Source: Pedobacter sp. (GTDB lineage: Bacteria; Desulfobacterota; Desulfuromonadia; Desulfuromonadales; Syntrophotaleaceae). From it: a DNA stretch of 64,000 nt. The notes under the pieces are model-generated. The model made no database searches. It was not told the DNA's origin and saw only the letters and a list, made by a program, of their open reading frames with translations. The position numbers and the translations under genes are program-made. Location of the stretch: NCBI GenBank assembly GCA_050253415.1, contig JBFWJC010000004.1:1-64000 (forward strand), in the 5' to 3' direction. Shown one piece after another: positions 53 through 19,403 of this stretch (positions are counted from its first letter, which is position 1; each line of letters starts with the position of its first letter).

Positions 53-127
53 GTCTATCTCCTTTTCGCGAATGGATAGACCGAAATCACTAACTTTGCA
101 ATGGTTTAGTTTTCAGGGGTAATGTCA
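1..127 (-). mobile_element. IS3-family insertion sequence, left end only (continues beyond window start)
   Basis: Minus strand from 127 reads TGACATTACCCCTGAAAACTAAACCA (TG-terminated IR-like end), then an AAGGAG RBS and an ORF starting MKSKRFTEEQIIGILKQ, typical of IS3/IS407-group OrfA. Confidence 0.8.
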
Positions 128-529
128 GAAGCTCGCAACCAATCTGATGGCGCAAAACATTTTGGTGCACCGGCAAGCATAAGATCTTTTGAAGATTCCC
201 TCAAAAAAGCTGTAGAAAAAGCCCTAAATCTGAATTATTCGAAAGAGGCCGGAACTACTCCACATGGTTTGCGTCATATGTATGCTTACACCCTAAGGGC
301 TCTTGGAGTTGACGAAAAAGTTATACAGGAGGGACTTCGCCATAGACATCCCTATAGCCAACGTGTTTATGGGAACCCAACTCCATCAGACATCAATGAA
401 CAAATAAAAATGTGTATGCAAAAGAGCCGCGACTCACTCCCGGATGGAGTTCAACTTGAACGCTCACTCAGATGGCTTGAAGACCGCTACCCTGAATTGA
501 AGATTTTAAAAGGAGGGCTATTAAAATAA
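128..529 (+). pseudogene. gmtY: 3' fragment of a GmtY-like tyrosine recombinase, interrupted by the IS
   Basis: Contains GTTPHGLRHMY...LRH...SQRVY (H-x-x-R, H, Y of tyrosine recombinases). The ATG at 122 lies inside the IS end and the frame is closed upstream. The stop overlaps the gmtZ start. Confidence 0.7.
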
Positions 530-3500: not shown

Positions 3501-3594
3501 ATCTATTATGACAGAAACCCTTTGCAAACAGATTGACTTCACGACTCAAGTCCAGAATTCAATGTATTTAGGATCGGACGAAATTGGCTGCTAG
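529..3594 (+). CDS. gmtZ: Large tyrosine integrase, GmtZ/VPA1269-like
   Basis: 1021 aa; PLRHIQPRRLDSGEGD, YTLHGLRHS...VAGH...MTLYY catalytic motifs; Cys cluster GVCPNG..C..DCTQCRFWITG; C-terminal coiled coil. Confidence 0.8.
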   Translation: MNNHTSSVTDNFVVKNGFTYCDDFHAWCVLRGLNDAAIQSLKKTFLLKKDLGINYIELSKKEKLLECVELLLQSKNSKLRLNCFRIFVNDGALLAPMGPPTLGPSQTNVLIPKGVLEKLCKEVTNNCEIHKIDRDAKFALGKLWTGTKEGREKEINKENLKLFLELFYRQSKMTPGHYTYRDAIPSRHAAAIKFFVGHLDMREHLQRPKRSLTPEFFAQEHPEGQKWIMLFEEFCREQGYGAIEKIEFSFNKLCTYLHENPEVASPSNFFSRKIPRKKLSEWLKETGNKSIDKDMRMLRNFFNWIASYDDTIAVRDPISDELIIRPECFIPITDSEINAVSNSDYERPAETVQLALPLEYLEEVEIILTEDNMAWPKSCKNEWVNLKDPESGEIKEVFCPVLPNLIRIMIKLPLRHIQPRRLDSGEGDDYYFDLKEGKFVPNHGPFAGYWKKKGVKNPERGVLRKIEDNWNGKSICGFYINSNKLTDRKTGFDETSGYVISWQNEAVIEIMQEMRAWQEYWNPVQAPTKYVNLRPKTFPKMQKDVAKRRPDTFYLFRYPAGQAHAFPDSPPSGDMLRFFWFKVLAELERRLKERGEDPPELISSWNYSTPTASPYTLHGLRHSGLTRMAEAGVHPWILKNIVAGHADYVMTLYYIKPRPTHISDYLNEKYEEAMSKKQNDFVHFLGSKNLEEVHRNSVAASGDAYTALQQIKNSVKNAAGGMSKLDHGVCPNGRTRCHEGVLLDSKKGVGKKGLKHTFAPTPTVMGAPDCTQCRFWITGTPFADGLRIKTNEVSFATHKAATRYRDMLEDLKDLESEKYQLEKEGNSASFKLNRQIQSLKQEIKTESEILSALSISLNSHGEKWQEVRALLRVQYEDNDPDGAYLLYDEEPKFEWGLLPKFQAIDELAHAAKWFPSVRNEDISRERKEKIVQMLVRNGKPPIIAMMTDKEAETAINAFTARLYSRLDRQAVRKLFEGQETFESLGMTKDVESIMTETLCKQIDFTTQVQNSMYLGSDEIGC

Positions 3595-3879
3595 TGGAAA
3601 AACTTAATGTTATTGGAAAATTATTGTCAATTATTTATAAACTTGTTGTGCATACAGGTAAATGGAATATACCTTCTACAAGATTCAAGGTTTTTCAGAA
3701 AACCATTCTCTTGTATCTACTGAAATTATTATGCAAGTAACAAGTGCAATCGCATGATACTGCAAAAACAAAAGTAGCAGAATAATACAACTCTTGTGCT
3801 ACCAAGTTTGTGACTTGCGCCTATTGCAAACTTCCTGAAGAAGAGAATTACAGAATCCGAATATAGGGGAAGATATTTA

Positions 3880-4602
3880 ATGAGCAAAATGACCATGGAA
3901 CAGGCAAAAATCGCTCGCATTGAATCAATTATGAAAGCAAAAGAAAATATAAAAATACGAAGTGATACCCGCCGCAAAATGGACCTTGTTGACAAAACCT
4001 GTAGCACAATTTTAGAAAGGGGTCGTCCATTCTCTGTTCCGGAAGTAGTTCGCGTTATGAAAGAAAAATTCCCTGGAGACGCCCTTTCTCACTCATCAAT
4101 TTCAAACCAAACCACTTCTGGAGATGCTTATAAAGAAGTAATTTTGGCCTGGAAAAATTATGCTGAAATCACAGGATTTATCAAACCCGTTACAATGCCT
4201 GCTACCGCAGCCGATGACATAACAGATTTGACCCTCAGTCAAATCAAACCTAAAGAGCTACGGCCTACTATCCTGGCCATGCGAACCTCTCTTAGAAATG
4301 CTCGAAAACAGTTACAAATGCATCAGATAGCTACCCCGTCAAGGTTGTTAAACCATGAAGAAACGATCGAAAGTGGCACTATAAAAGAAACTGGTGACAT
4401 TAGATTCAATCAATCAGACAGGCTTTCTCTTACAAATGGAGAAGTCGAAATCCTGGAGGCTTTCATAAATCCCGTAGAACTAGGAGCATTCGGGCTAAAC
4501 TGGAACAAGTTCGGTCAACTAATGAATGATTGTGGTGAAATCATTTCCAGGACTGGACTCAGGGATGTAATCGAAAAAATTCTAAAAATAATTAAACAGT
4601 AA
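3880..4602 (+). CDS. gmtX: GmtX-like accessory protein
   Basis: 240 aa, third gene of the trio. N-terminal pattern (C..I..RG..FSV.EV...SISN..G..YK..I.AW) followed by a helical segment resembles GmtX. Confidence 0.65.
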   Translation: MSKMTMEQAKIARIESIMKAKENIKIRSDTRRKMDLVDKTCSTILERGRPFSVPEVVRVMKEKFPGDALSHSSISNQTTSGDAYKEVILAWKNYAEITGFIKPVTMPATAADDITDLTLSQIKPKELRPTILAMRTSLRNARKQLQMHQIATPSRLLNHEETIESGTIKETGDIRFNQSDRLSLTNGEVEILEAFINPVELGAFGLNWNKFGQLMNDCGEIISRTGLRDVIEKILKIIKQ

Positions 4603-5124
4603 AACGCCGGATGTAGGCGTCACCGGCTCGGGCAAAATTATAGACTGATAAATCACTATTTGTCAGACGCGAAAGGCCCGCCAATTCAAACGGAGGGCCT
4701 TTACTACTTATGAAAATTGAAAAGCCAAAATGTGTGACCGATTTGTGTGTCTTGTGCACAATAAAATGTGCGTAACGCGACCAAGTTCGCTGCAATGCCT
4801 TATATCTCGTGCGCAACCTCCTGCCTCCACCGGGTGGGACAACTCATGCGTAACTCACCGACCTTGCCTGGATGTCGTCCGTTTAAGTGCAAAACTTTGA
4901 CAGGAAGGTATCGGATGATTCGATAAAAGGATCGGCCCTCTGGTTGCCTCTCCCAACGTAACACCCCATGGCACAGAAGATGCGGTCCTTTATGCGCACA
5001 GTCAAAGAGGTGATTCTGACTTAATGTTTGGCCGGATTGGGGCTTGAGGTGGCAGTTCTGACTCTGACTTTGTTCGAATTGACAGTTTTGGGGTGGTGGT
5101 TCTGGCTTTAATATGTCAGAGATT

Positions 5125-5179
5125 TCAACACATAGTTACACCGCATTATGTTTTTTGTGGTGTAACTTCCGCTCGAAAT
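5125..5179. repeat. 55-bp site with GTTACACC-N16-GGTGTAAC palindrome, copy 1
   Basis: 51/55 identical to 17240-17294. Confidence 0.9.
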
Positions 5180-5470
5180 CTTATCTTCGCCACTCAGACC
5201 GAAAGCCTTTATGGTAACCACTATGCTTACAGCGCAAAGATTTATTTGTTGCCAGAAAAAACGCCCTCACATCAGAAGCGATGCGAGGGCGAAAAGATTT
5301 ATCAACAGATTAACGTCTTTCCCTGCATAGCGACCGAGGGTTTTTCTCATTTTGCAGGGGTTGTGAGCCCCCAAGGTTTTACCCCTAATTGAAAGTTTTA
5401 ATTTATCCAGAACAACTTCCAAGATATATTCTAACCATAGGCCAATAGTTTTGGGGAAATCGGGGCGATG

Positions 5471-6540
5471 CAATCGTGGAATCAGACCTAGATAGAGAAC
5501 AATCACCTTCAACACGTGCAACTCGCTGTAATCATAACGCTTCTCGCCAATCGTGGAATTAAACCTAGAGGTCCGTTCCTTCCTATCGATCTGGCGCCCC
5601 CCCCGGCAATCGGGGAATCAAACCTAGATAGCTTGGCAACTGTTGAGATCGCGCAACTCGCCGTAATCATGGCATTTCTCGCCAAACGTGGGATCACTCC
5701 TCAATAGCCCGCGCTTCCGGACAGGATGGCGATCCCTGCGAATCGTGGCATCAGACCTAGATAGCGGGGGAATTGCGCCAGATCATGCAACTCACTGTAA
5801 TCATGTCATTTGTCGGCTATCGTGGAATTACTCCTTAATAGTTCGCTCCGCCGGCCAGCATGGTGATCCCTACCAATCGTGGAACAAGACCTAGATAGCG
5901 AAAAATTTGCTCAAATCATGCAACTAGCCGTAATCATGGCATTTCTCGCCAAACGTGGGATCACTCCTCAATAGCCCGCGCTTCCGGGCAGGATGGCGAT
6001 CCCTGCCAATCGTGGAATCAGACCTAGATAGCGAAGAAGCTGCTCAAATTGTGCAACTCATTGCAATTAATGCGTTTCTCGCCAATCGTGGAATTACTCC
6101 TTAATAAGTCGCTCCGCCGGCCAGCATGGTGATCCCTACCAATCGTGGAACCAGACCTAGATAGCGAAAAATTTGCTCAAATCATGCAACTAGCCGTAAT
6201 CATAACATTTCTCGCCAATCGTGGAGCCACTCCTTAATAGTCCGCACTTCCGACCAAGGTGAAGCTCTCTGCCAATCGTGGAATCAGACCTAGATAGCGA
6301 AGAAGCTGCTCAAATTGTGCAACTCATTGCAATTAATGCGTTTCTCGCCAATCGTGGAATTAAACCTAGGGGTTCGTTCCTTCAGGCCGACCTGGCAGCT
6401 CTCGGCAATCGTGGAATCAGACCTAGGTATCCAGACAGTGCGGATATTCATGATAACTAAACGTAATCATAAGGTTTCCCTCCAATCGTGGAATCACTCC
6501 TAGAGGCTCCGTCGTTCCCCTTGTGGTGACCCTTTTGAAT
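5471..6540. repeat. Hierarchical tandem repeat array: 8 units of ~133 bp, 16 copies of core CAATCGTGGAAT(C/T)A
   Basis: Core starts at 5471, 5548, 5607, 5683, 5740, 5817, 5874, 5950, 6007, 6083, 6140, 6216, 6273, 6349, 6406, 6483. Spacing alternates 76-77 and 57 bp (one 59). Confidence 0.95.
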
Positions 6541-6677
6541 CGCCACTAGTTTCGTAGAAACTACTGAGTATAATACGAAAAATTACAATTACTGTGTCAC
6601 TGTTAATGCGAAGGGCGTTACGGTCGAGGAGCATGATTGCCCCTGCACTGTACAAACATAATTCGTCTCCCGCTGGC

Positions 6678-7052
6678 TTATCGTTGCTGGTCTAGCCGCC
6701 ACCTTCGACTGCAATGACGTATGTAATCATAGTAATTCCGCTCATCGTTTGGAAGGTTGTCAATGCTTTCGATGGTTATAATCTCTGGCCAGTCGAGGCC
6801 ATCATTTAGTTCGCGTGTCATATCAGTATCGGAAACATCGGGCGGCGCGGCGGGCCAGTGTCTGCAGCAATCCAGTAGGTAATCCAGGTGTTTCACGACT
6901 CGACGCATATACAGAATTTCCTCTGAATATATCGTGCGGAGTCCAGCGTCCAGATCATCCCAACTAAGGGCATTTTCCAGGCGGAGCAGAACATCCAGGT
7001 TGTCTTGTCGCTCCGCATCGAAGACATTTTTGATGTGATCTATTTTTTCCAT
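6678..7052 (-). CDS. Hypothetical protein
   Basis: 124-aa ORF with protein-like composition. The start codon coincides with the edge of the long direct repeat, so it may be 5'-truncated. Confidence 0.45.
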   Translation of the reverse strand: MEKIDHIKNVFDAERQDNLDVLLRLENALSWDDLDAGLRTIYSEEILYMRRVVKHLDYLLDCCRHWPAAPPDVSDTDMTRELNDGLDWPEIITIESIDNLPNDERNYYDYIRHCSRRWRLDQQR

Positions 7053-7153
7053 ATTTTAGAAATTTCAATACCTCGATTTGGTCCCATGGCGCAACAAGTT
7101 ATGCGTAACTAAGGTTGCGAAACTTGTCCAGTCAAAACATCTATCGTGATAGC

Positions 7154-7444
7154 TCATAGAGCATCATCAAGGATGCCCTGCCACGGGTCGTCAGACAGGT
7201 TTTTATTTTCCTGCTCCTCTTCAAGCACAGCTATCACGGCCCGCGCTTTTTCTTTGGGAATAAGCATTAGTTCGCTGTTAAGACCTTCAGCAATCAGTTC
7301 CAGAGTACTTAGTTGCGGATTGCCCTTGGCCTCCAAACGTTGGTATTGCTGACGGGATACGCCGATGCGCATCATCATTTCGTGTTGCTTGAAACCCAGC
7401 ATCATTCGTCTTTTTTTGATCTGCTGCAGCAGAGATTCTGTCAT
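7154..7444 (-). CDS. XRE-family HTH protein, HipB-like antitoxin (copy 1)
   Basis: IKKRR..LG.KQ......IGVSRQQYQRLEAKGNPQLSTLELIAEGL HTH; acidic DPWQG tail; AGGAG RBS. Confidence 0.85.
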   Translation of the reverse strand: MTESLLQQIKKRRMMLGFKQHEMMMRIGVSRQQYQRLEAKGNPQLSTLELIAEGLNSELMLIPKEKARAVIAVLEEEQENKNLSDDPWQGILDDAL

Positions 7445-7475
7445 AGAAACTCCTGTATTGCTTTTTGTGCTAAAC

Positions 7476-7549
7476 GAAACACATAAGTTTCTTTATTTTA
7501 AATATGCAACAAATAAGTTGCCTTTTGAGGTTGTCAACATTTGTGTTGC
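7476..7549. promoter_or_regulatory. Three operator-like palindromes upstream of the HTH gene (also present in copy 2)
   Basis: GAAAC-N6-GTTTC (7476), GCAAC-N6-GTTGC (7506), TCAAC-N6-GTTGC (7534), spaced ~28-30 bp. Confidence 0.6.
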
Positions 7550-8274
7550 CTACCATTTTTCAGTGCATTTCTTCTTTTGAGAAGAATCGCAAAAATTCAG
7601 TATTATTTCAATTATTCTCTATAAAATAGGTAGTTTATGCATGAATCCGACCTGTCCTTCCAGGGCGCGAGCATTAATGCGTCACCCAGACGCACTCACT
7701 ATGCAGACAGGTCGGTCCTCCTATTTGCACATTATCGAACGATGGTAGGTCACTAGGATTCCTACATTCCAGACAAATCACCACTCACCAGACGCGAAAG
7801 GCCCGCCAGGAGAATTGGCGGGCCTTTTCCAATATGTCAGGGTTTTTGAGAAAACGCGGAAAAGTAACCAGCGACCAGCAAAAAATCATTCTGAGACAAA
7901 AAGCAAGACGGCCCTACCTGTATTCTCGGTGGGCCGTTTTTTTAAGGCAGCTACTGTCTTGGGATTGAACATATTTGGAACGGTTTGCAGGCGTTGACAT
8001 CCTTTAGCGACATTTGCAGAAAAACCGCGCAGTACAGCGGGTATTTTCTGCACAAGTCCAATGGCTCAGCATTAAATTGTATTGAAATAAGCCTGAGGTG
8101 CGATAAATGTCTTATTAGACACGGATCTCGACAATGCCAAGCCCTTCGTGAGAAAGGCAGACGCAGGCCAACTGCCGAAGAATCCTTCTTTTTAAAGTGA
8201 GAGTCATTTTTTAAACCTAGGAGTGTCTAAGAAACTAGGGGCGATTCACTTGTCCAACAAGAGGGGAAGATGCG

Positions 8275-9465
8275 ATGCGTAAAACTTGCCAGCCGTGTTT
8301 TGTAAGTGCTTCCGGGGAGCATGAGCTACTTAAGCGTGTGGCATTTTCTGACAAGGCAATTGCTGAGAGCTTTCTCCAGAATGCCTTACATCAAGCTCCC
8401 GAGATTCTTCCAGTTGACCAATTCGATGACGCCTTTGGTCCCCTCATTTCGCTTGGGCGCGAAATCGACAATATCGACAACCTGTTTATCTCCCCCAACG
8501 GGCGTTTGACAATTGTTGAGACAAAGTTGTGGCGAAACCCGGAGGCTACTCGGGAGGTCGTGGCACAGATCCTCGATTACGCAACACGAGTTAGCAGTTG
8601 GTCTTACTCAGAACTGGAAAGCAGAGCACGGCAGGCACTCGCTCCGGCGCCAATTGCTGATCAGTCTCTCTTCGAATTTGTGGCGTCATCCGCGGACATC
8701 GATGGCTTGTCGGAGTCGGGCTTTGTTGATGATGTGCAGCGGACACTGCAAGCAGGCAGATTTCTTCTTCTTGTGGTTGGCGATGGCATCCGCGAAAACC
8801 TTGAAGCGATGCTCGCATCCCTACATAAGCACCCGCAGAAGCTGTTCACCTTTGGCCTGCTTGAACTACAGGTATTTCAGGATACTGTTGTCCATGACAG
8901 GCACCTGATAGTCCCACAGGTCATCGCAAACACAACAGAGATCGTCCGTGCTGTTGTCCGCGTTGAAACAACAGGTCAGGCATCGGTTTCCGTCGAGATC
9001 GACGAGCCCGAACCCGTGACTCAGCAGTCCTCTCCTCGCAGGACTCTGTCCAGGGACGAGTTCTTTGGAGCCATTACGGACAACGGCACCAAGGCGCTGT
9101 TTTCTGATCTACTGTCTCTTACTGAAGAAATGGGAGCAGAACCGGGGTGGCGTTCCTCAAGTATCTCGGTCCAACTGCCTGACCCTGCAGGAAGTCGCCA
9201 GCGTCTCACCTTGTTTATTATGACAACAAGAGGTGATATTTATACCGGTTGGCTTGCTGATCAACTTGAGCGCGTGGGAAGACCTTCTCAATTTGCTTCA
9301 GACTACGTAAATGAATTGTGCGCTCTATTCCCCGGTATTCAACAAAACGAGAAGTATCCTGATTCTCTATCGAGGTACATACGTGCGAGCGAGGTGGACG
9401 AAAAACGCGACGACTTTGTAGAAATCGTGAGATCTCTTGTTGATCGAATTTTAGCTAGTGAGTGA
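8275..9465 (+). CDS. PD-(D/E)xK nuclease-domain protein (NucS-like N-terminus); probable gene cassette
   Basis: IDNLFISPNGRLTIVETKLWRNPEATREVVAQILDYA matches the D...ExK...QxxxY nuclease motif. Followed directly by an attC-like site. Confidence 0.75.
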   Translation: MRKTCQPCFVSASGEHELLKRVAFSDKAIAESFLQNALHQAPEILPVDQFDDAFGPLISLGREIDNIDNLFISPNGRLTIVETKLWRNPEATREVVAQILDYATRVSSWSYSELESRARQALAPAPIADQSLFEFVASSADIDGLSESGFVDDVQRTLQAGRFLLLVVGDGIRENLEAMLASLHKHPQKLFTFGLLELQVFQDTVVHDRHLIVPQVIANTTEIVRAVVRVETTGQASVSVEIDEPEPVTQQSSPRRTLSRDEFFGAITDNGTKALFSDLLSLTEEMGAEPGWRSSSISVQLPDPAGSRQRLTLFIMTTRGDIYTGWLADQLERVGRPSQFASDYVNELCALFPGIQQNEKYPDSLSRYIRASEVDEKRDDFVEIVRSLVDRILASE

Positions 9466-9467
9466 TT

Positions 9468-9528
9468 GCAGAACTGGACTAAGTGCAGGTGACGCGGTTA
9501 GCCGCGCCTCTGATTCGCGACGTCAGGT
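9468..9528 (+). other. attC-like site 1 (degenerate)
   Basis: GCAGAAC ... GTGCAG ... CGCGG-TTAG-CCGCG ... CTGATTC-GCGAC-GTCAGGT, starting 2 bp after a stop codon. Confidence 0.55.
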
Positions 9529-9545
9529 TGAAAGAGAGGACTCCC

Positions 9546-10001
9546 ATGCTCGGCCCATCTACTCTTACAATTTTTGAAAAAGCAATTACTGCTCTAAATA
9601 ATGATTTGTCAAAAGAAAAAAGCAAAGTAGGAATTGTTTTTAAAAATATAATTGGCCATCCTGTTAAAGTGTTCGCTTCATTTATTGCAGCACCATTTCT
9701 TGTAATCAAAATAGCCTGTGTTGTAAAAAACCCAATCCGAAGAGCAATTGCAATCATTGGTTTACTGTTATCAATCGTTTTTGCTTACTTGTCGGCGACG
9801 TTTCTTGGTTCAGTTGTAGGGGCAGTTTTTGTTGCCTCAAATATTGGAATCTTGATGGGTATCGGGTTCTTTTTTGGAACAACTCTAAGCGTTTTCTTGA
9901 GTGTTGTTTTCTCAATTGTAGTATTTAACACAGTTTCTTTTGTTTTTTTAAAGATGAGTTCACAAGAAATAATCGATTATTTGCAAGAAATATCAACCTA
10001 G
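9546..10001 (+). CDS. Hypothetical membrane protein; probable gene cassette
   Basis: 151 aa from the ATG after a GAGAGGA RBS; several hydrophobic segments; low GC; stop lies inside the R'' box of the next attC-like site. Confidence 0.75.
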   Translation: MLGPSTLTIFEKAITALNNDLSKEKSKVGIVFKNIIGHPVKVFASFIAAPFLVIKIACVVKNPIRRAIAIIGLLLSIVFAYLSATFLGSVVGAVFVASNIGILMGIGFFFGTTLSVFLSVVFSIVVFNTVSFVFLKMSSQEIIDYLQEIST

Positions 10002-10098
10002 CGAAACACTTCATCGGATGTCCCAATGGTAGTGTTTCCCCAAAATTTCATACCGGATTCTTCAGCACTTCTCCACCGGTGAACTTAATTCGTTGGAC
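9996..10098 (+). other. attC-like site 2
   Basis: ACCTAGC-N5-ACTTCATCGG ... CCGGTGAACTT-N5-GTTGGAC, the R''/L''/L'/R' layout of an attC. Confidence 0.7.
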
Positions 10099-10459
10099 TG
10101 CCTTAATGTCTACCACCCATCAGACATCAAAAGCCCCCGACCACCTGGCCGAGGGCTTTTCTGATAAATGAGGGGTTGTTAGAAACACAGAAAAGTAGCA
10201 ACGATCAGCGAGAAATCAATCTGAGACAATAAACAAGACGGCCCCGCCAAAAATGCTGGCGGGGCCGTTTTTTATGATGGCTACTGTCTTGAAATTGAGG
10301 AGTCGTAATAATTTGATTCTCAGCCCCATCTGATCCCTGAAAACAATGTGAAACAATATGTTGGACACTTCTGCCCTCGTCGGAGTGAAAATGCCAGGAG
10401 TGCCTAGAAAACTACGGGCGATTCAATTTTTCTCTGCCTACCCCCGTTTGATATCTCCA

Positions 10460-10762
10460 CTACGATTCGACGATTCCGATTACTACCTTGAAGCCACCGG
10501 TCGCAAATTTTGGAAGATCGGCAATTGTTGCTTGCCCTTCGGCAGATCCACGTGCCTGCTCCATTTGAGCCTGAGATGTAAAATAGAGCTCGGCCATGCG
10601 ATAGAAGTCTGGTCTTCTTCCGTCCGCCCCGGCTACAAATTTGGTAAGCTCGATGCGTGCCACCTTTTTAATCTGGGATACAAGAGGCAAGTGGTTGTTT
10701 TCGTAATGCTTTTCGAACGCATAAAAACTCATCGGATGGCCATATAGTACGGTGATTTTCAT
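10460..10762 (-). CDS. EthD-family reductase
   Basis: KITVLYGHP...FEKHYENNHLPLV...MAELYF...DLPKFA is the EthD pattern. Confidence 0.85.
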   Translation of the reverse strand: MKITVLYGHPMSFYAFEKHYENNHLPLVSQIKKVARIELTKFVAGADGRRPDFYRMAELYFTSQAQMEQARGSAEGQATIADLPKFATGGFKVVIGIVES

Positions 10763-11072
10763 CATGCGGGCCTCTTTCATATGTATAATTGCCCAGCAAC
10801 AGCCGAATTAGACCACCAGCCATTAGGGGCGAACAATTGCTCTGCACCATCCGTTTGTGGCTTAGCGCGGCGAAGGGACAAACCGCCGCGCAATGCCCGC
10901 CAGGCTATACATCCTTTTTCGATCTTCTTAATTGTCTCGGGCAATCCTCCAGCGGCAACAATAATCCCGGCCGGACAGGCCCTACACAGAGACCACAGCG
11001 CGCGCTCTCTTTTTCGTTTATGGAAATTAGTCCCATGCTCTTTTCCATAAAACCAAGCCTATCAGTACCATG

Positions 11073-12167
11073 TTATTTTATGACGCATTTTACTCCTTCA
11101 CCTTTTAGTCCCGGGCCAAAGCATCCGTCACAATATATGCAGGTTGCTGGCTTTGTGTCCCCGGACTTCCAGCGTTCAATCAAATTTGGTTCGCGAATAA
11201 GAGGACGACAAATGGATATATAGTCAGCCACCCCGTCGTTTATCAGGTTTTCGGCTACTTCCAGGGAACGAATGCCACCAACCAGCAAGAGAGGTACGCC
11301 AATTTTCCCTTTATAGCGAATAGCTGCTTCTTTGTAATACACCTCTTTATCTTGTGAATCTAATGCGCCAATCCTGCAGCTGGAGTATGCGCCTGATGCA
11401 TATATTGTCCCGCCGCTCATTTCGATGGCGTCAACCCCGGCCTTTTCCAACATTGCGCAGACCTGGAGCATCTCATCCACAACGAGACCGTCTTTCACGA
11501 AATCCTCCGAATTGATCTTCACGAGCAGCAGAAACTCTTCCCCGACCTCGTTTCTGACCGCACGCACCGCCTCCAGAATAATTCGCGCTCGATTTTCTAT
11601 GCTTCCACCGTAATTGTCCGTTCGTTTGTTGAAAAACGGCGAAAGAAATTGGCTCATCAGATAACCATGGGCCGCATGCAGTTGCACTCCGTCATAACCG
11701 GCCTTCTTCGCCCGTCCCGCCGCCTTGGCGAAAGACTCCACGACCTGCTTGATCTCGGCCAATGTTATTTCCCGACATTCGGGAAAGTCTGGGGATTTGT
11801 TCGTGGAAGGCCCCAATACGTCGCTGCCGGTCAGGGCCTGAGGAGCGTAACAGCCGCCGTGGGCCAATTGCACGACAACTTTGCTACCGGTCCCATGAAT
11901 CGCGACCGCCATTTCCGCTAGCCCGGGGATGAATTCGTCTCCGTAAATGGCTAATTGAGAGGGGGCTGCCTTTCCTTCAGGACTCACGAAAGCCATGCCC
12001 GTGACGATCAGTCCCACGCCGCCACGGGCTCGCTCCACCAGAAACTCCCTGTTCTTTGCGGTGCAGAAACCTTTGTCATCGGCGAGTCCGTCCCATGTTG
12101 CCGAGTAGACATACTTGTTTTTCAGGGAAAGGCCTTTGAGTTGGGTCTTTTCAAACGATTTCAGCAT
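11073..12167 (-). CDS. NADH:flavin oxidoreductase (Old Yellow Enzyme family)
   Basis: ERARGGVGLIVTG, QLAHGG, GYDGVQLHAAHGYLMSQFLSP..NKRTD.YGGS.ENR; start moved to the ATG after the AGGAG RBS. Confidence 0.93.
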   Translation of the reverse strand: MLKSFEKTQLKGLSLKNKYVYSATWDGLADDKGFCTAKNREFLVERARGGVGLIVTGMAFVSPEGKAAPSQLAIYGDEFIPGLAEMAVAIHGTGSKVVVQLAHGGCYAPQALTGSDVLGPSTNKSPDFPECREITLAEIKQVVESFAKAAGRAKKAGYDGVQLHAAHGYLMSQFLSPFFNKRTDNYGGSIENRARIILEAVRAVRNEVGEEFLLLVKINSEDFVKDGLVVDEMLQVCAMLEKAGVDAIEMSGGTIYASGAYSSCRIGALDSQDKEVYYKEAAIRYKGKIGVPLLLVGGIRSLEVAENLINDGVADYISICRPLIREPNLIERWKSGDTKPATCIYCDGCFGPGLKGEGVKCVIK

Positions 12168-12446
12168 GGTCACTTCTCCTTTTGTGAATGATTTTCTGAG
12201 GGTGTTTCTCTTTGTGCCGACGATTTCGGGGCGTACCGGCTTTCCCCTCAGCCGAGTTCCTTGACCGGCGTGCAGGTACTTTGAAAGCGTAAACAGAAAT
12301 ACTGGTTGCCGAAGAAGCCAACATGGGGGTGGCTCAAATATTCGGGGATCTGCAGAATAGTCTTTCCACACCCCGAGATCTCCTTGCTATAACGGCGTAT
12401 CCTCTTTTCCATGTCGGCATGCCGGGATTCATTTATATTTGTATTA

Positions 12447-12463
12447 TCGACTAGACCGGTCTA
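12447..12463. promoter_or_regulatory. Putative TetR (NemR-like) operator upstream of the OYE gene
   Basis: Contains TAGACCGGTCTA palindrome; a related site lies at 13105-13120. Confidence 0.55.
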
Positions 12464-12505
12464 TGTAATAATGGGCAAAAAAAAGATGCTTTGCTTCTAC
12501 TTTGC

Positions 12506-13093
12506 TTAAAGAGCTAAAAATTTATCGAAGTACAGGTGGATAAAATTTTTCAAAGGCGCAGAGGATTTCTTAACCTTGGCGCGAAGCAGCGCCCCCTCGA
12601 ACGATGCGATCATGTTCTCCGCCAACGTTTCGGCGTCGAGATCCGCGGCGATTGCCTTTTCCCTTTGCGCTTGAAGAAGCAAGCTGATGAAAACATCGGC
12701 CCAGCGCTGCAGAGTCAGATCGAGGTGCTGCCTGATCCTTTCGTATTGATCGGACATTTCCAGGCTCAGGTTGCCAATCAAACACCCCTTGCTGCAGTCG
12801 TTGTTTTCAAACCGTGAGGTCAGGCTCTCGAAGCATTTCCTGATGCGCTGAAGGGGGGGCAGTGAATCATCCTCCAGGATCGGCTGGAAAACGCTGCTGT
12901 ATATCTCAACGACGAACCTGTCGATGACTGCCAGAGCGAAATCCTCCTTGCTGGAGAAGAAGTTGTAAAAGGACCCCTTCGGTACGTTAGCCTGTTTCAG
13001 GATGGCCTCGACGCCGGTAGCGTTGAACCCCCTGCTCAGCATGATGTCGAGTCCGGCCTGAACGATGTCGTCTTTGTTATGAATTCGTTTCAT
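12506..13093 (-). CDS. TetR-family transcriptional regulator (NemR-like)
   Basis: GFNATGVEAILKQANVPKGSFYNFFSSKEDF HTH and GCLIGNL motif. Start may be 13093 or 13105. Confidence 0.92.
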   Translation of the reverse strand: MKRIHNKDDIVQAGLDIMLSRGFNATGVEAILKQANVPKGSFYNFFSSKEDFALAVIDRFVVEIYSSVFQPILEDDSLPPLQRIRKCFESLTSRFENNDCSKGCLIGNLSLEMSDQYERIRQHLDLTLQRWADVFISLLLQAQREKAIAADLDAETLAENMIASFEGALLRAKVKKSSAPLKNFIHLYFDKFLAL

Positions 13094-13104
13094 GGAAAAC
13101 AGCA

Positions 13105-13120
13105 TAGACCGGTCAGTCTA
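13105..13120. promoter_or_regulatory. Putative TetR autoregulatory operator
   Basis: TAGACC-GGTC-AGTCTA resembles the NemR box TAGACC-N4-GGTCTA. Confidence 0.6.
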
Positions 13121-13464
13121 ATTAGGTCAAGGTTTTTTTCTGCTCGACTCCGTGGTAAGTGTGAAATTTAGAGGTTGAAATTTGATTCTGACCCAAAAAG
13201 CCGGTGAAAGAGGGAAATAACTTCCATAATTCCAATAAATCACGAGTTCCAAAACACAAAAGCCCCGTCCGGTTCGCCAGGCGGGGTTTTCTCATACTGC
13301 AGGGAATGCAGTAACAGCGAAAATACTCTCAATAAGCCATCAGAAAACAATTTGCCATAACTTTTGAGACATCTCAACAGAGTGTTTAGGCGATTCAATG
13401 ACTTGTGTTATGATTCGCCGGATCATTCACTCATTCAAGTTCTAATAAAAAAATCCGGTATGGT

Positions 13465-14484
13465 GTGTTTCAATTGAGCGAAAAACGAATTTTCATTACG
13501 GGTATAGCAGGTTTTTTGGGGAGTCATATCGCAGACAGGTGTCTGGCTGAAGGATACAGGGTTTCGGGATGTGACAACCTGATGGGTGGCTACCTTGACA
13601 ACGTTCCGGTTGGCGCTGGGTTTCATCAGATCGACTGCAACGATTTTGCCTCTCTGGCCCCTTTGATGAAAGGGGTCGATATTGTCTACCATTGCGCTGC
13701 CACAGCCTATGAAGGCCTCTCCGTATTCAGCCCGCATCTGGTCACCCGGAATGTTGTCACGGCGACCAGTGGCGTTGTTGCCGCGGCAGCGGCCGGAGGG
13801 GTCAAGCGCTTCGTTCTCTGCTCCTCCATGGCCAGGTATGGCACAAATGAGGTTCCGTTTACCGAGGATATGGTGCCGGCACCTCAGGACCCCTACGGCA
13901 TCGCCAAATGGTGTGCGGAACGACTGCTTGCCAATATCGCCGAAACCCACGGTATGGAGTGGGTGGTGGCGGTTCCTCACAATATCATCGGGCCCCGTCA
14001 GCGGTATGACGATCCTTACCGCAACGTGGCCGCTATTTTCATCAACCTGATGTTGCAAGGGCGCCAACCCTATATCTACGGAGACGGCAATCAGAAGCGC
14101 TGTTTCAGTTTTGTCTCCGATGTGGTGGACCCGCTTCTGCGCATGGCCACGGATAACCGCTGTGTTGGGGAGGTTATCAATATCGGCCCCGACGATGAGT
14201 TTGTGTCTATCGCCGAGCTTGCCGCCATGATCGCCCGGCTACTCGATTTTGATTTGCAGCCGAACCGGATCGATAGCCGCCCTCAGGAGGTTTTCTTTGC
14301 CAACTGCTGCGCCGACAAGGCCCGGCGACTGCTTGATTACCAGCCGAAGGTGAAACTCGAAGAGGGCTTGGCCGTTATGATCGACTGGATAAAATCTCGC
14401 GGACCTCGCCCCTTTTTACACAATGTAGAGTTGGAAATAGACGGACCGCTCGCGCCGAAGACCTGGTCGAAGAAGTTACTGTGA
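13465..14484 (+). CDS. NAD-dependent nucleotide-sugar epimerase/dehydratase
   Basis: TGIAGFLGSH Rossmann motif, YGIAK catalytic motif, extended SDR layout. Confidence 0.92.
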   Translation: MFQLSEKRIFITGIAGFLGSHIADRCLAEGYRVSGCDNLMGGYLDNVPVGAGFHQIDCNDFASLAPLMKGVDIVYHCAATAYEGLSVFSPHLVTRNVVTATSGVVAAAAAGGVKRFVLCSSMARYGTNEVPFTEDMVPAPQDPYGIAKWCAERLLANIAETHGMEWVVAVPHNIIGPRQRYDDPYRNVAAIFINLMLQGRQPYIYGDGNQKRCFSFVSDVVDPLLRMATDNRCVGEVINIGPDDEFVSIAELAAMIARLLDFDLQPNRIDSRPQEVFFANCCADKARRLLDYQPKVKLEEGLAVMIDWIKSRGPRPFLHNVELEIDGPLAPKTWSKKLL

Positions 14485-15791
14485 TGAGCCTGCTCCATAA
14501 CGAAACGGAAGGCGCAGGGCTCACACCAAAGGCCGCCACTATGCTGGCAGAGGCTACGGCATTGGAGGGATCGCTGCATCTGCCCGGAGTGCGCGACGAC
14601 TATCGATCCCGGCTGGAGCTCGTTGTACAGTCGGCCACAAGAGCTATGGACAGCGCGGTGGACAATCGAGAGGTTGCGTTGCTCCAATGGGTGTTACTAC
14701 GGGCTCAAGCGGCCCGGGCAGAGGATGCGCGCTATGGCGCCGGGCAGCTCTCGCGCGGATCTCAGCGGGCGCCCACATGGTCAGATTGCGAGGACGGCTG
14801 GCAGCGCGTTGAGCAGATCGTTTGCAATGCAGAAGAGGCGGCATCGGAGGCCGCACGTTTTGCTGAGCTCCTTAATACGGCCAAAGCGAGAGCGATAGCC
14901 CGCAGGGCTGAAATTGCCGGAAACGCCGCGAGGAAAATCGTCCTGGAGCGGAACCGCGCCTACACGTTTCATGCAGATCCCGGCTTTTCGTTCGGCGAAG
15001 GCTGGTACCTTGCTGCCGCGGCGCTGCTTGCCGGTGTTCCCATCCAGATCAGACCTGGCGCTGTTCAGGAATTGCAGGCCAAACATTTTCTGCGCGCTGC
15101 CGGGTTAGCAGGATCCCTTCGCCCCTATCGGTCCCGTCCGGCGAGTCCCAAGCATCTGACGCATATCATCGCTGAGGCTTTTCACGCTGACGCGCCAGGA
15201 GCACAGTGTACCCTTCGCGCAGCGTTTCTGGGAGAGGAATCGCCATCGGCTTCCTTAAGATCATGGATCGATGGCAATGTGGGAGGGAATTCAGAGCAGA
15301 AGGTGCTGCTTTGGGTACGAACGGGTGACCACGATGCCGAGCGCAACACCTGTTTCGATGAGTTGCGGCAGCTTTTTGACCTGGTATTGAATGCCGGGCT
15401 CACTCCCATCTTTTTCGGCGATGCTGTTCCCGCGGACCTTGTTCCGACGAGGGGAGTAGACCTGACCCTTTGCTGGAAAGAGCCGCTCTTCCAGGGGCCG
15501 GACATGCGCCTGGCTCAACTGCAACTGTTTGAGGAGTTGAAATGCCGACACAACCTGGTGGGCCAGATCGGTGTTACCACTGCCGGCATGGACGGACCGG
15601 CGCTTATGGGATTGCCCACTCTTTATCTCACACAGGAACGCAACGTCCGACTGGGCAAGTGGGTGGGAGCCGTTCCGGGATATCAAGAAGTCGTGCGGGC
15701 GCCGGGCTATTTCGAAATCATTCGTACCACCTTGCATCAGTGGAAGCAGCACCCTCGCGGATTTGCTGGCCAACCAGGAGAGGACGTTTAA
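14481..15791 (+). CDS. Hypothetical protein; helical N-terminus, possible GT-B-like C-terminus
   Basis: 436 aa, overlaps the epimerase stop (GTGA). C-terminal QIGVTTAGMDGPALMGLPTLYL resembles the GT9 motif. Confidence 0.7.
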   Translation: MMSLLHNETEGAGLTPKAATMLAEATALEGSLHLPGVRDDYRSRLELVVQSATRAMDSAVDNREVALLQWVLLRAQAARAEDARYGAGQLSRGSQRAPTWSDCEDGWQRVEQIVCNAEEAASEAARFAELLNTAKARAIARRAEIAGNAARKIVLERNRAYTFHADPGFSFGEGWYLAAAALLAGVPIQIRPGAVQELQAKHFLRAAGLAGSLRPYRSRPASPKHLTHIIAEAFHADAPGAQCTLRAAFLGEESPSASLRSWIDGNVGGNSEQKVLLWVRTGDHDAERNTCFDELRQLFDLVLNAGLTPIFFGDAVPADLVPTRGVDLTLCWKEPLFQGPDMRLAQLQLFEELKCRHNLVGQIGVTTAGMDGPALMGLPTLYLTQERNVRLGKWVGAVPGYQEVVRAPGYFEIIRTTLHQWKQHPRGFAGQPGEDV

Positions 15792-15874
15792 CATCAGTTG
15801 TGTAAATGGTTTTCCTATAAGTCACAGGTTCTAAAACACGAAAACCCCGTCCGGTTAGCCAGGCGGGGTTTTCT

Positions 15875-16671
15875 CATATTGCAGAAATTTCAATACCTCG
15901 ATTTGGTCCCATGGCGCAACAAGTTATGCGTAACTAAGGTTGCGAAACTTGTCCAGTCAAAACATCTATCGTGATAGCTCATAGAGCATCATCAAGGATG
16001 CCCTGCCACGGGTCGTCAGAAAGGTTTTTATTTTCCTGTTCCCCTTCAAGCACAGCTATCACTGCCCGCGCTTTTTCTTTGGGAATAAGCATTAGTTCGC
16101 TGTTAAGGCCTTCAGCAATCAGTTCCAGAGTACTTAGTTGCGGATTGCCCTTGGCCTCCAAACGTTGGTATTGCTGACGGGATACGCCGATGCGCATCAT
16201 CATGTCGTGTTGCTTGAAACCCAGCATCAATCGTCTTTTTTTGATCTGCTGCAGCAGAGATTCTGTCATAGAAACTCCTGTATTGCTTTTTGTGCTAACA
16301 GAAACACATAAGTTTCTTTATTTCAAATATGCAACAAATAAGTTGCCTTTTAAGGTTGGCAACATTTGTGTTGCCTATCCATTTTTCAGTGCATTTCTTC
16401 TTTTGAGAAGAATCGCAAAAATTCATTATTATTTCAATTATTTTGAATAAAATAGGGAGTTTATACATGAATCCGACCTGTCCTTCCAGGGCGCGAGCAT
16501 TAATGCGTCACCCAGACGCACTCACTATGCAGACAGGTCGGTCCTCCTGTTTGCACATTATCGAACGATGGTAGGTCACTAGGCTTCCTACATTCCAGAC
16601 AAATCACCACTCACCAGACGCGAAAGGCCCGCCAGGAGAATTGGCGGGACTTTTCCAATATATCAGGGTTT
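15875..16671. repeat. ~0.8-kb direct repeat, copy 2
   Basis: Near-identical to 7050-7845. Confidence 0.95.
15979..16269 (-). CDS. XRE-family HTH protein, HipB-like antitoxin (copy 2)
   Basis: 3 amino-acid differences from copy 1 over 96 aa. Confidence 0.85.
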   Translation of the reverse strand: MTESLLQQIKKRRLMLGFKQHDMMMRIGVSRQQYQRLEAKGNPQLSTLELIAEGLNSELMLIPKEKARAVIAVLEGEQENKNLSDDPWQGILDDAL

Positions 16672-17059
16672 ATAGTTCTCTTTCAAAGTCGAGATAACGG
16701 CGTACCGCCATGATGCCTTCATAACCCTTTTTCATTATGTCCAGAGGCGTAGCACTATCGAAACGCCGGTTGGGTTGGGTTATCCAACGGTGGGCCAGGT
16801 CGGTATTGTGGGGGAAAGCCTGACGAAGGGATTTGTGGATGCCGAGAAGATGCCCAGCCCTTCCTAGAAGGTCCTGGCGATCGGCAAGCGGATAACCATT
16901 GCGGTATCTGTAAAGGGTATCGCGATTTTTCCCTGACAACCCCAATAAGGCAGCCTGGTCTTTGAAGTCCAGTTCCCAGTGATCAAACAGACGCAAAATC
17001 ATTTTTGCTAGCCGTTGACGATTCTCGGGTGTATGCAAATCGACGTTGGATTGGGCCAT
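16670..17059 (-). CDS. MbcA/ParS/Xre-family antitoxin
   Basis: RLFDHWEL...QAALLG...LLGIHKSLR..FP.N...A..WI..PN..F....PLD.M......VRRYLD; ATG after a GGAGG RBS. Confidence 0.85.
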   Translation of the reverse strand: MAQSNVDLHTPENRQRLAKMILRLFDHWELDFKDQAALLGLSGKNRDTLYRYRNGYPLADRQDLLGRAGHLLGIHKSLRQAFPHNTDLAHRWITQPNRRFDSATPLDIMKKGYEGIMAVRRYLDFEREL

Positions 17060-17190
17060 TGTACGGTACCTCCCTGCTCCTCGCGGCACGAACATGGTGC
17101 CAACGAACACAAAATAAGGGAAATAAGAGTGGATAGCTTAACATTATATCTCCCTTCTGATGTTAGAAATCCGAGCGTTGTTTACACACT

Positions 17191-17294
17191 GTTACACCAC
17201 GGAATCATATTTGTAGTGTAACTATGCGAGACCCTCGGGTCAGCACATGGTTACACCGCATGCTGTTTTTTGTGGTGTAACTTCCGCTCGAAAT
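17191..17294. repeat. Two GTTACACC-N16-(A/G)GTGTAAC palindromic sites; the second is copy 2 of the 55-bp repeat
   Basis: 17191-17222 is an inverted, diverged copy. 17240-17294 is a direct copy of 5125-5179. Confidence 0.85.
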
Positions 17295-17484
17295 GATTTG
17301 GCAACAGATTAACGTACCCCCTTGGCGCAAGACAGGGTGCTTCCGTTTTAAGGGATCTGCTTAACGTCTTGAAAGCCAGTGGTAGGTGGGCACGGGCCTT
17401 AACCTTTTCCAAGCCATAATTTTACCAAGGCAACTAATCGGACAATCTCGAGTTATGCGCTGAGTCTACCCATTCGACGTATAA

Positions 17485-17691
17485 GGTCTTAGATGTCAGC
17501 AATTTGAGGTCACGTACAAGACGAAGGGGGACTTCAAGGCAACAGCCTTTAACGGTACCAATGGGCAGGTATCAACGGCGGTGCAATGTGGAGGTTTCAG
17601 ACCCGCACGTTCCTATCTGAGCCTCGATAAGTTGGGAGAGGTTCGAAATTTGATTGAAAAGGCCAAGAGCACATTGCAAGCCGTGCAATAG
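17485..17691 (+). pseudogene. 3' remnant of a cassette-like gene
   Basis: Open frame ...QQFEVTYKTKGDFKATAFNGTNGQVSTAVQCGGFRPARSYLSLDKLGEVRNLIEKAKSTLQAVQ* lacks a credible start and ends 2 bp before an attC-like site. Confidence 0.45.
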
Positions 17692-17693
17692 CC

Positions 17694-17785
17694 ACCCAAC
17701 AAATGGATGCAGCGAGCACTTGCCCCATCGTGCACGGCAGTTGTCGTACCCGCCGCTTCAAGTGCCGCAGAGCTCAGCATTGAGG
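17694..17785 (+). other. attC-like site 3 (degenerate R')
   Basis: ACCCAAC-N5-GATGCAGCG, inner stem GCACTTG/CAAGTGC, CGCAGAGCT-CAGC-ATTGAGG. Confidence 0.55.
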
Positions 17786-18208
17786 GGGTAGGTAAAGCCC
17801 GTCTTAAAAATCACGATCACTAGAACATCGGACGACCCAACCTTTTTCCCCTAGGTTGGGTCGTCTCATATCTTGTTTCAAATTGATTATCAGATTATCT
17901 AGGATTTATCAGTCGTCATGAGGGTATCTGAGTGGACAGGTTCCCATCAATAACAGGGGAATGGCTTTGGTTCGAGAATGGGTGTCTGCTCTGGAAACAA
18001 AAAGTATCTTTGGGTTTTATACGCCATTACCACGATCGTTCGGGATGATTCCAAAGGTTGCGTTTGAAGCAACGATGGGGAGTTAGATTGGAGATATTGT
18101 GCAGAAGGATTTCAAGTTATTCTAATGTCGTGTTTCAGAGGGGTTTCAACTTAAGTGAAAGCATACCGAATCCTTAAACTACCCATTCTTTTCCGACTAC
18201 CGAAAACA

Positions 18209-18241
18209 ACAAAAGCCCATCGCGAATAGAGGGGCTTTTGT
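18209..18241 (-). terminator. Hairpin downstream of the tRNA
   Basis: ACAAAAGCCC...GGGCTTTTGT inverted repeat. Confidence 0.6.
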
Positions 18242-18316
18242 CATCAAATCTTTCTTTTAACAATAAAATTTTTCGCTTGGTAGAAAAAACAGGGAATCCA
18301 CCAGTCCCTTTTGAAA

Positions 18317-18403
18317 TGGTGCGCGAGGCGGGACTTGAACCCGCACGGCTAAAAGCCGCAAGATTTTAAGTCTTGTGTGTCTGCCGAATTCCACCACTCG
18401 CGC
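18317..18403 (-). tRNA. tRNA-Leu(TAA)
   Basis: GCGCGAG acceptor stem, D-loop TGGTGGAATTCGGCAGACAC, anticodon arm CAAGA-CTTAAAA-TCTTG, long variable arm, GGTTCAAGTCC, encoded CCA. Confidence 0.96.
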
Positions 18404-18496
18404 ATAGATGGTAATGTTACTAACTATTTTTCCCTGCTCAATACCTTAATTTATAAAGGATATATACATACATAGTAAAGGGCCTACCGATCATTT

Positions 18497-18523
18497 TGCG
18501 TCTACCAGTTCCGCCACCCGGGC
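18497..18523 (-). pseudogene. 5' stub (27 nt) of a second, different tRNA-Leu-type gene
   Basis: GCCCGGGTGGCGGAACTGGTAGACGCA is an acceptor 5' strand plus a complete D-arm; tRNA-like sequence stops at the anticodon stem. Confidence 0.85.
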
Positions 18524-18544
18524 TTGTTTGTGAAATGGTGACCA

Positions 18545-18573
18545 ATATTAGTGGATTCGACCGTCACCGTCAA
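18545..18573 (-). promoter_or_regulatory. Sigma70-type promoter of the truncated tRNA gene
   Basis: TTGACG-N17-TAATAT, ending ~21 bp upstream of the stub. Confidence 0.65.
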
Positions 18574-19403
18574 CTCAAAAGGCAGGGTTGAAAAAAATTC
18601 AGCTGAGGCTTTTCTTTCAAAAGGTGATGCTTGACGGCTAATTCAAAAAATCTCTCCAGCCCCTGGCGATGTTGATCGGTAAATCGGTACGATATGCTAC
18701 GCCAATATGCCGCGAGCCGCTCCTTCCCCATCCAGGTTGCTTCCTGCCTTTCGCTGGCAAGCTTATCCAGGTCGGACAATGCGCGCTCCAGAGACTGCTT
18801 CAACTGGAGATAAAAAGCGGTCAACTCCGATGATTTGTGCTGGATGGCATCGCGATGAATCATCCACATAGCGAACACAAACGGCAATCCGGTATGGTGC
18901 CACCAAAGTTCGCCCAGATCATAAACATGAGGAGAGGTGGTATGTATAGCAGCCTTGAGGGCACGATCACCGATCAGTAAACCGCTCCCCCCCATGGCGA
19001 TAATCTCCTCCACCGACCGATTGTCGCAAGGCATTTCGCTCAGGGGAAAACCGTAGAATTCCAAACACAGAATGCGAAGCAGATTTATGGAGGTGGCCGA
19101 TTCGCCGGTCAATGCCACAGGAACAGCTGCCAGGTTTTCCAACGGCTTGGAGGCAAAAAGCAAAACACTTTGCACCGGACCTCTGGAGCTGATGGACAAC
19201 TCGGGCAATAGCCCATAGTTGGACCAATTACGACCGTATTCAAAGGTGGAAGACGGGCTGAGGTCGATTTTGCCTAGAGCGAGCATGGCGTTAAGGTGTG
19301 ACGGAACGCCTGCCTGAATCTGGCCACGAAATCCGACCTGATCGAGATAATGAAAAAAGGGCACACAGTTGGCGTAAGCTATATGGCCAACCTTCAAACT
19401 CAT
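18570..19403 (-). CDS. mqnA: Chorismate dehydratase, futalosine menaquinone pathway
   Basis: VGHIAYANCVP, GVPSHLN, SISSRGPVQSV, ESATS, LLIGDRAL, DLGELW..TGLPFVFA. Confidence 0.9.
   Translation of the reverse strand: MSLKVGHIAYANCVPFFHYLDQVGFRGQIQAGVPSHLNAMLALGKIDLSPSSTFEYGRNWSNYGLLPELSISSRGPVQSVLLFASKPLENLAAVPVALTGESATSINLLRILCLEFYGFPLSEMPCDNRSVEEIIAMGGSGLLIGDRALKAAIHTTSPHVYDLGELWWHHTGLPFVFAMWMIHRDAIQHKSSELTAFYLQLKQSLERALSDLDKLASERQEATWMGKERLAAYWRSISYRFTDQHRQGLERFFELAVKHHLLKEKPQLNFFQPCLLS

Follow-up and report, generated by a model that had tools for sequence, protein, structure and literature searches.

R1, a hairpin repeat family at the joints of accessory gene modules in a genome of the Desulfuromonadales

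Background

Outside integrons, little is known of how genomic islands and variable regions acquire and exchange their cargo. This question is raised by a 64,000-nucleotide stretch of DNA (hereafter the window), comprising positions 1 to 64,000 of contig JBFWJC010000004.1 in assembly GCA_050253415.1, which is deposited as Pedobacter sp. and placed in the family Syntrophotaleaceae of the order Desulfuromonadales. Directly after the gene gmtX, which belongs to a Gamma-Mobile-Trio (GMT), the window holds seven copies of a hairpin repeat within 13.2 kb, and gene modules lie between them. A preliminary description of the locus took the hairpins for a reused element end or recombination site through which cargo is serially added. 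We named the repeat R1 and asked what it is, where else it occurs and whether it belongs to the island. R1 is a real homologous element of about 85 nt, and it is probably a lineage-restricted boundary repeat of terminator type that forms the joint of accessory modules and is a recombination hot spot.

The R1 unit

As first noticed, the heptamer AARTCAC is present at positions 4650, 7775, 13237, 15819, 16601 and 17808, always on the + strand, and a seventh copy with a decayed leader (TGTCTAC) lies at 10107. By itself the heptamer shows no enrichment: the window has 18 matches where 19.9 are expected. An alignment of the seven copies revealed common sequence on both sides of a hairpin whose stems differ from copy to copy, and all seven fold as RNA into the strong hairpin that had been claimed for them, with energies of -16.8 to -26.6 kcal/mol and z values of -2.7 to -5.3. 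All on the + strand, the copies occupy 4645-4724 (copy 1, after gmtX, with an imperfect stem; -16.8 kcal/mol), 7770-7849 (copy 2), 10102-10181 (copy 3, the one with the decayed TCAC box), 13232-13311 (copy 4), 15814-15893 (copy 5), 16596-16675 (copy 6) and 17803-17925 (copy 7, a divergent subtype of about 113 nt). A profile and a covariance model (CM) were built from 13 copies, and the CM scored copies 1, 3, 4, 5, 6 and 7 at 61.2, 66.5, 82.9, 81.6, 78 and 43.1 bits, respectively.

The plan of the unit is TCAC, 16 nt, an outer stem of 8 bp, an inner part of 16 nt (6 bp and a tetraloop), 9 nt and CAGG. The core is a G+C-rich hairpin with an A-tract on its 5' side and a T-run on its 3' side. Almost no insertions or deletions separate boxes and stem in a CM-based alignment of 56 distinct copies from across genera. 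Across 74 unique copies, taken from this genome and from relatives, the most informative positions are TCAC, A-ACA, the stem, TTTTCT and CAGG, and the TCAC and CAGG boxes are conserved above the other unpaired sequence of the unit. Homology ended sharply at about -4 and +85 in pairwise comparisons. The conserved unit of the preliminary description was thus correctly seen but drawn too narrowly, as it extends to a CAGG box 9 nt past the stem. Several subtypes of R1 coexist.

The stems differ and still pair, as had been proposed from three of them. In the alignment of 56 distinct copies, which is itself fitted to the CM, 91.5% of the stem cells pair, compared with 79.2% after shuffling, and changes on both sides are seen in 65 cells, compared with 23; none of 500 shuffles reached the observed value in either measure. 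Slid registers of the same alignment pair at just 31-68%. R1 fits no Rfam family, since the sole match found in window 1-24000 at E<=1 was a tRNA-Leu. No conserved -35/-10 pair appears in the profile of 74 copies, and the region has 18 promoter-like sites where 17.3 would be expected.

Terminator-like form and placement

In its form R1 corresponds to an intrinsic terminator, that is, a G+C-rich stem-loop with a T-run behind a co-oriented gene. TTTT(C)T follows the stem in six of the seven window copies. Throughout the genome 27 of 36 copies, as judged with a crude longest-ORF pick, have a co-oriented open reading frame (ORF) upstream, mostly at a distance of 260 nt or less. The claim that R1 is placed regardless of gene orientation consequently stands inside the reported region and fails genome-wide. 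From its sequence, the repeat would appear to be a two-way intrinsic terminator and may act as one.

These features would also suit a simpler account, in which R1 copies are plain terminators inherited together with duplicated genes and play no recombination role of their own. The hairpin form and the 27 copies behind co-oriented genes favour it. However, the genes 5' of R1 outside the region are unrelated to each other, and include TrkH, a histidine kinase, a RelA/SpoT-type gene, ScdA and GGDEF/EAL proteins. Among 80 metagenome loci with homologues of a 436-aa gene that R1 borders in the window, it adjoins the gene in just the two closest (94-95% amino-acid identity) and weakly in a third. 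Breakpoints between strains are about tenfold enriched in the units, as detailed below, and the CM gave no matches (E<=1e-6, with stricter filters) in 150 sampled genomes of the phylum from outside the order, from which it follows that ordinary terminators do not match the R1 model. We regard this account as very unlikely.

Distribution of R1

The genome of 4.1 Mb carries about 35 R1 copies, some 28 of them outside the reported region. Searches with nhmmer gave 35 non-overlapping matches at E<1e-4, and the CM gave 38 at E<=0.01, two of which are the opposite strand of an already counted hairpin. The contig of the window has eight copies, seven of them in the reported region. Two - strand clusters were found, ten copies within the first 31 kb of contig C5 and four within the first 22 kb of C2, and the remaining copies are scattered on C1, C5 and C7. 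The preliminary description had named scatter in the manner of ordinary terminators as the finding that would tell against it. The copies are indeed scattered and terminator-like, but they constitute one homologous, geometry-constrained family for which the CM gave no match in the 150 sampled genomes outside the order.

With the CM, R1 was detected in 22 of 31 genomes of the Desulfuromonadales, this genome included: in 13 of 16 others of the same family and in 8 of 15 from other families of the order, with 1 to 35 copies per genome. Plasmid and phage collections yielded no R1 match. A search of genome contigs with an exact degenerate pattern of 25 nt recovered one metagenome-assembled contig of the Desulfuromonadales, the pattern being too strict to define the range. 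Arrays like that of the window occur in relatives. The complete genome G009, with 19 R1 copies, has nine + strand copies within 18 kb (eight by nhmmer; the CM gives eight and adds the one at 9590), G013 has at least six copies within 6.4 kb, and G005 has two arrays. The genes in these arrays lie in both orientations and encode, among others, sensor kinases, P-type ATPases and redox enzymes; no integrase was found near any of them. An all-against-all BLAST comparison of array loci from different species revealed few common modules.

Could R1 be a small non-autonomous mobile element, such as a miniature inverted-repeat transposable element, a repetitive extragenic palindromic (REP) sequence or a palindrome-associated transposable element, that inserts behind genes and shuffles modules only incidentally? 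It is a dispersed and discrete unit with sharp ends of homology, its subtypes coexist, and it has a relative, the hairpin unit B described below, that occurs with or without it. On the other hand, the R1 alignments contain neither terminal inverted repeats nor target duplications, and 1 to 35 copies per genome is a low number. No convincing empty TCAC-CAGG site was found; genomes of the genus are about 70% identical and R1 flanks are not conserved, so filled and empty orthologous sites are not comparable. Moreover, the same junction is found with different hairpin bodies and neighbours, which points to exchange rather than insertion. Taken together, a mobile element of this kind is improbable.

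Modules and breakpoints

We compared the contigs of four metagenome runs from four studies (X2, X3, X4 and X6) with window 1-20000, without counting as evidence the uncovered parts of the window or runs with a small share. Positions 668-4600, which hold the trio, had next to no depth in all four runs, and positions 10006-16008 were covered in all four, mostly at 95 to more than 99% identity. Modules of the window recur without the trio in the four runs and in two independent contigs, at 94-99% identity and with different hairpin bodies and neighbours each time. Among the loose ends listed within 4.6-17.9 kb, 10 of 13 fall within R1 or B units; as these occupy about 6% of that span, the enrichment is about tenfold. 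Among the joints listed within the same span, seven of ten have both ends in R1 or B units, and the remaining three reflect copy-number change in a tandem array and a small indel. Breakpoints are concentrated at the TCAC box and at 0-30 nt past the hairpin. The expectation of the preliminary description that strain breakpoints would map to the elements was therefore borne out, in the four runs as well as in the metagenome loci L058 and L059, and a duplicated module discussed next ends exactly there.

This is a module of 790 bp present in three copies of exactly the same span: 7057-7849, 15881-16675 (matched at 97% identity over 15869-16671) and C2:21641-22449 (91%). It contains an Xre-type helix-turn-helix (HTH) gene, at 7154-7444 on the - strand in the first copy (Pfam HTH_3), and a small ORF on the + strand. 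It begins in an R1 tail (TTGCAGGAATTTC) and stops at +76 of its own R1, which is copy 2 for the first HTH module and copy 6 for the second. The alignment shows that the tail of copy 5 is cut at TTGCAG by the second HTH module.

A second module, on the + strand at 13301-15825, carries an epimerase gene and the 436-aa gene, and runs from (C)AGGGAAT to CCTATAAGTCAC. Its carriers are the window, L058, L059, a paralogue at C1:522-524 kb and runs X2, X3 and X4, and each has a different hairpin body and different neighbours. In L058 and L059 the likeness to the window is 94-96% up to ...TAAGTCAC, after which the hairpin bodies are unrelated; L059 and the C1 paralogue also have different bodies before (C)AGGGAAT. 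At position 14488, between the epimerase and 436-aa genes, all four runs have 36 extra letters, and in the window the two frames overlap.

The third case is a module lying wholly on the - strand at 10291-13231, with genes for an EthD protein, an old-yellow-enzyme-type oxidoreductase and a TetR regulator (Pfam). It is 99% identical in X2, X3, X4 and X6 and ends at 10291 and 13292/13293. The breakpoints at R1 copy 4 fall at 13292/3 and at 13300-13303 (three runs).

The left end of this last module lies in a B unit. B is a dispersed repeat with an R1-like plan, found on the + strand at 7838-7969, after copy 2, and at 10153-10298, after copy 3, where contigs of X2 and X4 break at 10291. As had been noted, the extensions of the 7775 and 10107 copies form homologous double-hairpin blocks; the homology runs from +52 to +199 at 74.5% identity. 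Besides 10153-10298, B matches at C5:19762-19891, C5:1-143 and C5:104719-104851, and also in G005, G006, G007, G009, G013 and G016, with or without R1.

We propose that recombination inside R1 moves modules from one genomic place to another and from strain to strain. Exchange would take place where copies remain alike, either at the TCAC box or within 30 nt past the hairpin, so that a module would retain both its ends (CAGG...genes...TCAC) and receive another hairpin body and other neighbours. Short homology rather than a dedicated enzyme would mediate it. Repeated serially, such exchange would build arrays in which all R1 copies share one strand, however the intervening genes are oriented, and it could account for the same-strand arrays, the modules in any orientation, the hybrid repeats and the truncated modules. 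A possible example of truncation is an Xre/MbcA/ParS-type antitoxin gene at 16670-17110, which is followed by no RES-type toxin gene and whose stop codon abuts the R1 tail of 16596-16675; to judge from this arrangement, the antitoxin pair looks truncated at copy 6. The whole stretch from gmtX to the tRNA-Leu gene would then be one R1 array built of modules from the host lineage.

Several points weigh against this proposal. The members of a cluster are not independent, so counts of same-strand copies overstate the effect. With regard to terminator form, the copy at 17808 has no T-run after its stem, a simple terminator scan flags one of the seven window copies, and the ORF calls behind the count of 27 in 36 are crude. 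Ninety further loose ends exist beyond those listed; the Logan contigs may be chimeric at repeats, and many joints have short sides of 26-62 nt. The boxes common to R1 copies measure just 7-15 nt, and RecA-type homologous recombination usually needs more identity than that. Finally, the fixed distances from box to stem and a CAGG box conserved beyond the transcript end suit a structure-specific protein, and a terminator alone does not explain them.

The last point leads to another reading, in which R1 is the recombination site of a dedicated structure-specific enzyme, and R1 arrays form a cassette system that resembles integrons or IS200/REP elements and does without IntI. Such an enzyme would recognise the hairpin and cleave at a set distance on either side, behind TCAC and close to CAGG. 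In the case of IS608, cleavage by Y1 HUH transposases falls about 19 nt on the 5' side and about 10 nt on the 3' side of a hairpin. The nearly indel-free TCAC-16-stem-9-CAGG geometry across genera, the raised conservation of the boxes, a junction exactly after TCAC in at least five contexts of one module and the same-strand arrays whatever the gene orientation would all fit. Yet the 3' breakpoints are scattered from +56 to +86 after the anchor, about 30 nt, and not at one point. This spread argues against one fixed crossover point and favours exchange wherever copies are locally alike over a recombinase with a single crossover; given it, a single dedicated recombination site is not demonstrated. 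No candidate enzyme was found, IntI was not found in G009 with its 19 R1 copies, and a convincing empty TCAC-CAGG site did not turn up either. The orientation of R1 with respect to GC skew shows no bias (21 vs 16). A dedicated enzyme is unlikely. If the reading were true, modules of any content and orientation could be excised, exchanged, stacked and even loaded into an incoming GMT island.

Among the candidates for such an enzyme were two genes resembling REP-associated tyrosine transposases (RAYTs), at G000 C13:3398-4342 and C2:112703-113509, both just under the NCBIfam cut-off. The C13 gene has a DnaA-C-like tail and the C2 gene lies within an attC cluster. The link was rejected: neither R1 nor inverted repeats stand beside the two genes, and RAYT-like genes occur in 28 of 31 genomes, R1-less ones included, with none found in G009.

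The GMT genes

The trio is represented by a GmtZ-like integrase of 1021 aa at 529-3594 on the + strand (Pfam PF13009, 145 bits; NCBIfam GmtZ, 390 bits with a cut-off of 600) and by GmtX at 3880-4602 on the + strand (NCBIfam GmtX, 58.4 bits, cut-off 40). The gene gmtY, for a tyrosine recombinase, is split at about window position 128 by an IS3-like insertion sequence (IS), with the front part placed at the beginning of contig C3 on the reverse strand. Copies of this IS (window 1-131) also end contigs C1, C2, C3, C4 and C8, which explains the assembly breaks. A search of genome contigs with the GmtZ-like protein found no related locus.

In the narrow form of the earlier reading, R1 would be the place where the GMT island takes in cargo or ends. 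Seven copies within 13.2 kb directly after gmtX favour this idea, as does the description, in the parts of a preprint considered here, of GMT islands that insert at sites with inverted repeats, which then flank the island (bioRxiv 10.1101/2023.03.28.534373). However, in those parts each island has one site, which the island splits, whereas the R1 hairpins here are all intact, internal to an array and spread over the genome. The same parts describe no internal hairpin repeats, and the words 'hairpin' and 'terminator' do not occur in them. The genome holds one trio, with a single PF13009 match and a split gmtY, compared with about 35 R1 copies. PF13009 was found in 2 of 151 genomes of the order against 22 of 31 for R1, so the repeat is not a property of the trio, and the four runs hold modules without trio genes. 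The attribution of R1 to the island did not survive these counts, and we consider a GMT site extremely unlikely. The genes gmtZ and gmtX are neighbours of the R1 array and not partners of the repeat; under the proposed exchange inside R1, the trio beside the array would be a rare passenger. This suggests that the cargo of this GMT-type island was assembled from host modules rather than arriving with the trio.

Comparison with known repeat systems

The closest parallel to module exchange at R1 was provided by the promoter early stem-loop (PeSL) cassettes of T4-type phages. The parts of the study drawn on here (Arbiol et al. 2010, PMC2839356) report module shuffling by recombination between PeSL copies, which are short regulatory repeats with a terminator stem-loop at the seams of non-essential modules and form arrays in hyperplastic regions. 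R1 likewise shows gain, loss and replacement of genes between relatives with breakpoints in the repeats. In PeSLs, however, a sigma-70 promoter is joined to the stem-loop, and none is recognisable in R1. R1 also differs in being chromosomal, in its restriction to one bacterial order and in its two conserved unpaired boxes at fixed distances.

R1 resembles integron attC sites in having a hairpin at the module end whose structure is kept while its sequence varies, and in its same-strand arrays with varying neighbours. Yet it lacks the pairing cores RYYYAAC...GTTRRRY, and its TCAC and CAGG flanks are not complementary. Its stem is perfect and G+C-rich, and its modules are multi-gene and lie in either orientation. 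The true attCs of this genome carry the cores and differ in look from R1. A true attC precedes several R1 copies by 15-25 nt, among them copies in three other genomes and window copy 3, which is directly 3' of an attC-like site ending GTTGGAC. No R1 was found inside the main cassette array of the genome. In 30 relatives, which are kin and not independent, R1 and IntI occurred together in 14, R1 alone in 7, IntI alone in 1 and neither in 8. That R1 is the site of a new, integron-independent cassette system of the Desulfuromonadales, with an enzyme cutting after TCAC and before CAGG, is in our view rather doubtful.

The R1 lineage also has classical integrons. A complete one is located at G000 C1:1750302-1759659, with an integrase (447.6 bits, cut-off 265) and about 14 classical attC cassettes; the IS that ends the contig cuts it. 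There are further attC clusters on C8 and C16 and at C1:3.8-7.1 kb, C1:336-342 kb, C2:109-119 kb and C5:16.5-18 kb. The attC sites were sought with an nhmmer profile that overlooks short ones, for instance those of the window; it replaced two heuristic attC finders that recovered 5-6 and 3 of about 14 known sites.

With REP sequences and bacterial interspersed mosaic elements R1 shares the nature of an extragenic palindrome behind genes and a short conserved motif 5' of the hairpin. REPs are terminators or stabilisers, and recombination or IS-target hot spots. R1, in contrast, numbers tens of copies and not hundreds, and occurs as single units and not as inverted pairs. It also differs from IS200/IS605 ends, in which two subterminal hairpins enclose tnpA/tnpB, as it has a single hairpin, no transposase inside its modules and no replication-strand bias.

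We found no description of the R1 family in the literature searched. The genome paper of Pelobacter carbinolicus lists multicopy sequences, in whose supplement 'TTTTCTC' and 'AAACACAG' have no occurrence and 'AAATCAC' has one, unrelated. The Geobacter bemidjiensis paper, in the part covered (its supplements lay outside the search), presents palindromic multicopy families without function. In R1, one small conserved non-coding unit stands at the seams of modules swapped among strains from several habitats, and it offers a defined sequence for asking whether short regulatory repeats alone, as with phage PeSLs, or a new recombinase bring such swapping about.

Other features of the window

R1 copy 7 has 87-88% identical copies in G001, G003 and G005, and the likeness of an X2 contig stops within it, at 17914. 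In three other species of the genus, core genes nearby show 69-82% identity compared with the 87-88% of the repeat. This suggests that the divergent subtype may be under strong constraint or recently transferred.

A partial R1 consisting of the 3' tail only, with the T-run and CAGG box, lies on the + strand at 5331-5365 (a weak nhmmer match to profile positions 44-79, E 0.71). It heads a tandem-array module, and a contig of X2 joins 7827 to 5355 there. The array, at 5471-6520, contains at least 13 copies of the 12-mer CAATCGTGGAAT, variants included, at a spacing of 57-135 bp. Two unit types alternate with a period of 133/266, and no Rfam match was found. The array is present without the trio in two runs, with a copy-number difference of 401 nt in one, and could be a protein-binding iteron array.

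A repeat of 55 nt with 92.7% identity between its copies, at 5125-5179 and 17240-17294, includes the palindrome GTTACACC...GGTGTAAC. The copy at 17240-17294 is operator-like in position, upstream of the antitoxin gene, and that at 5125-5179 is isolated.

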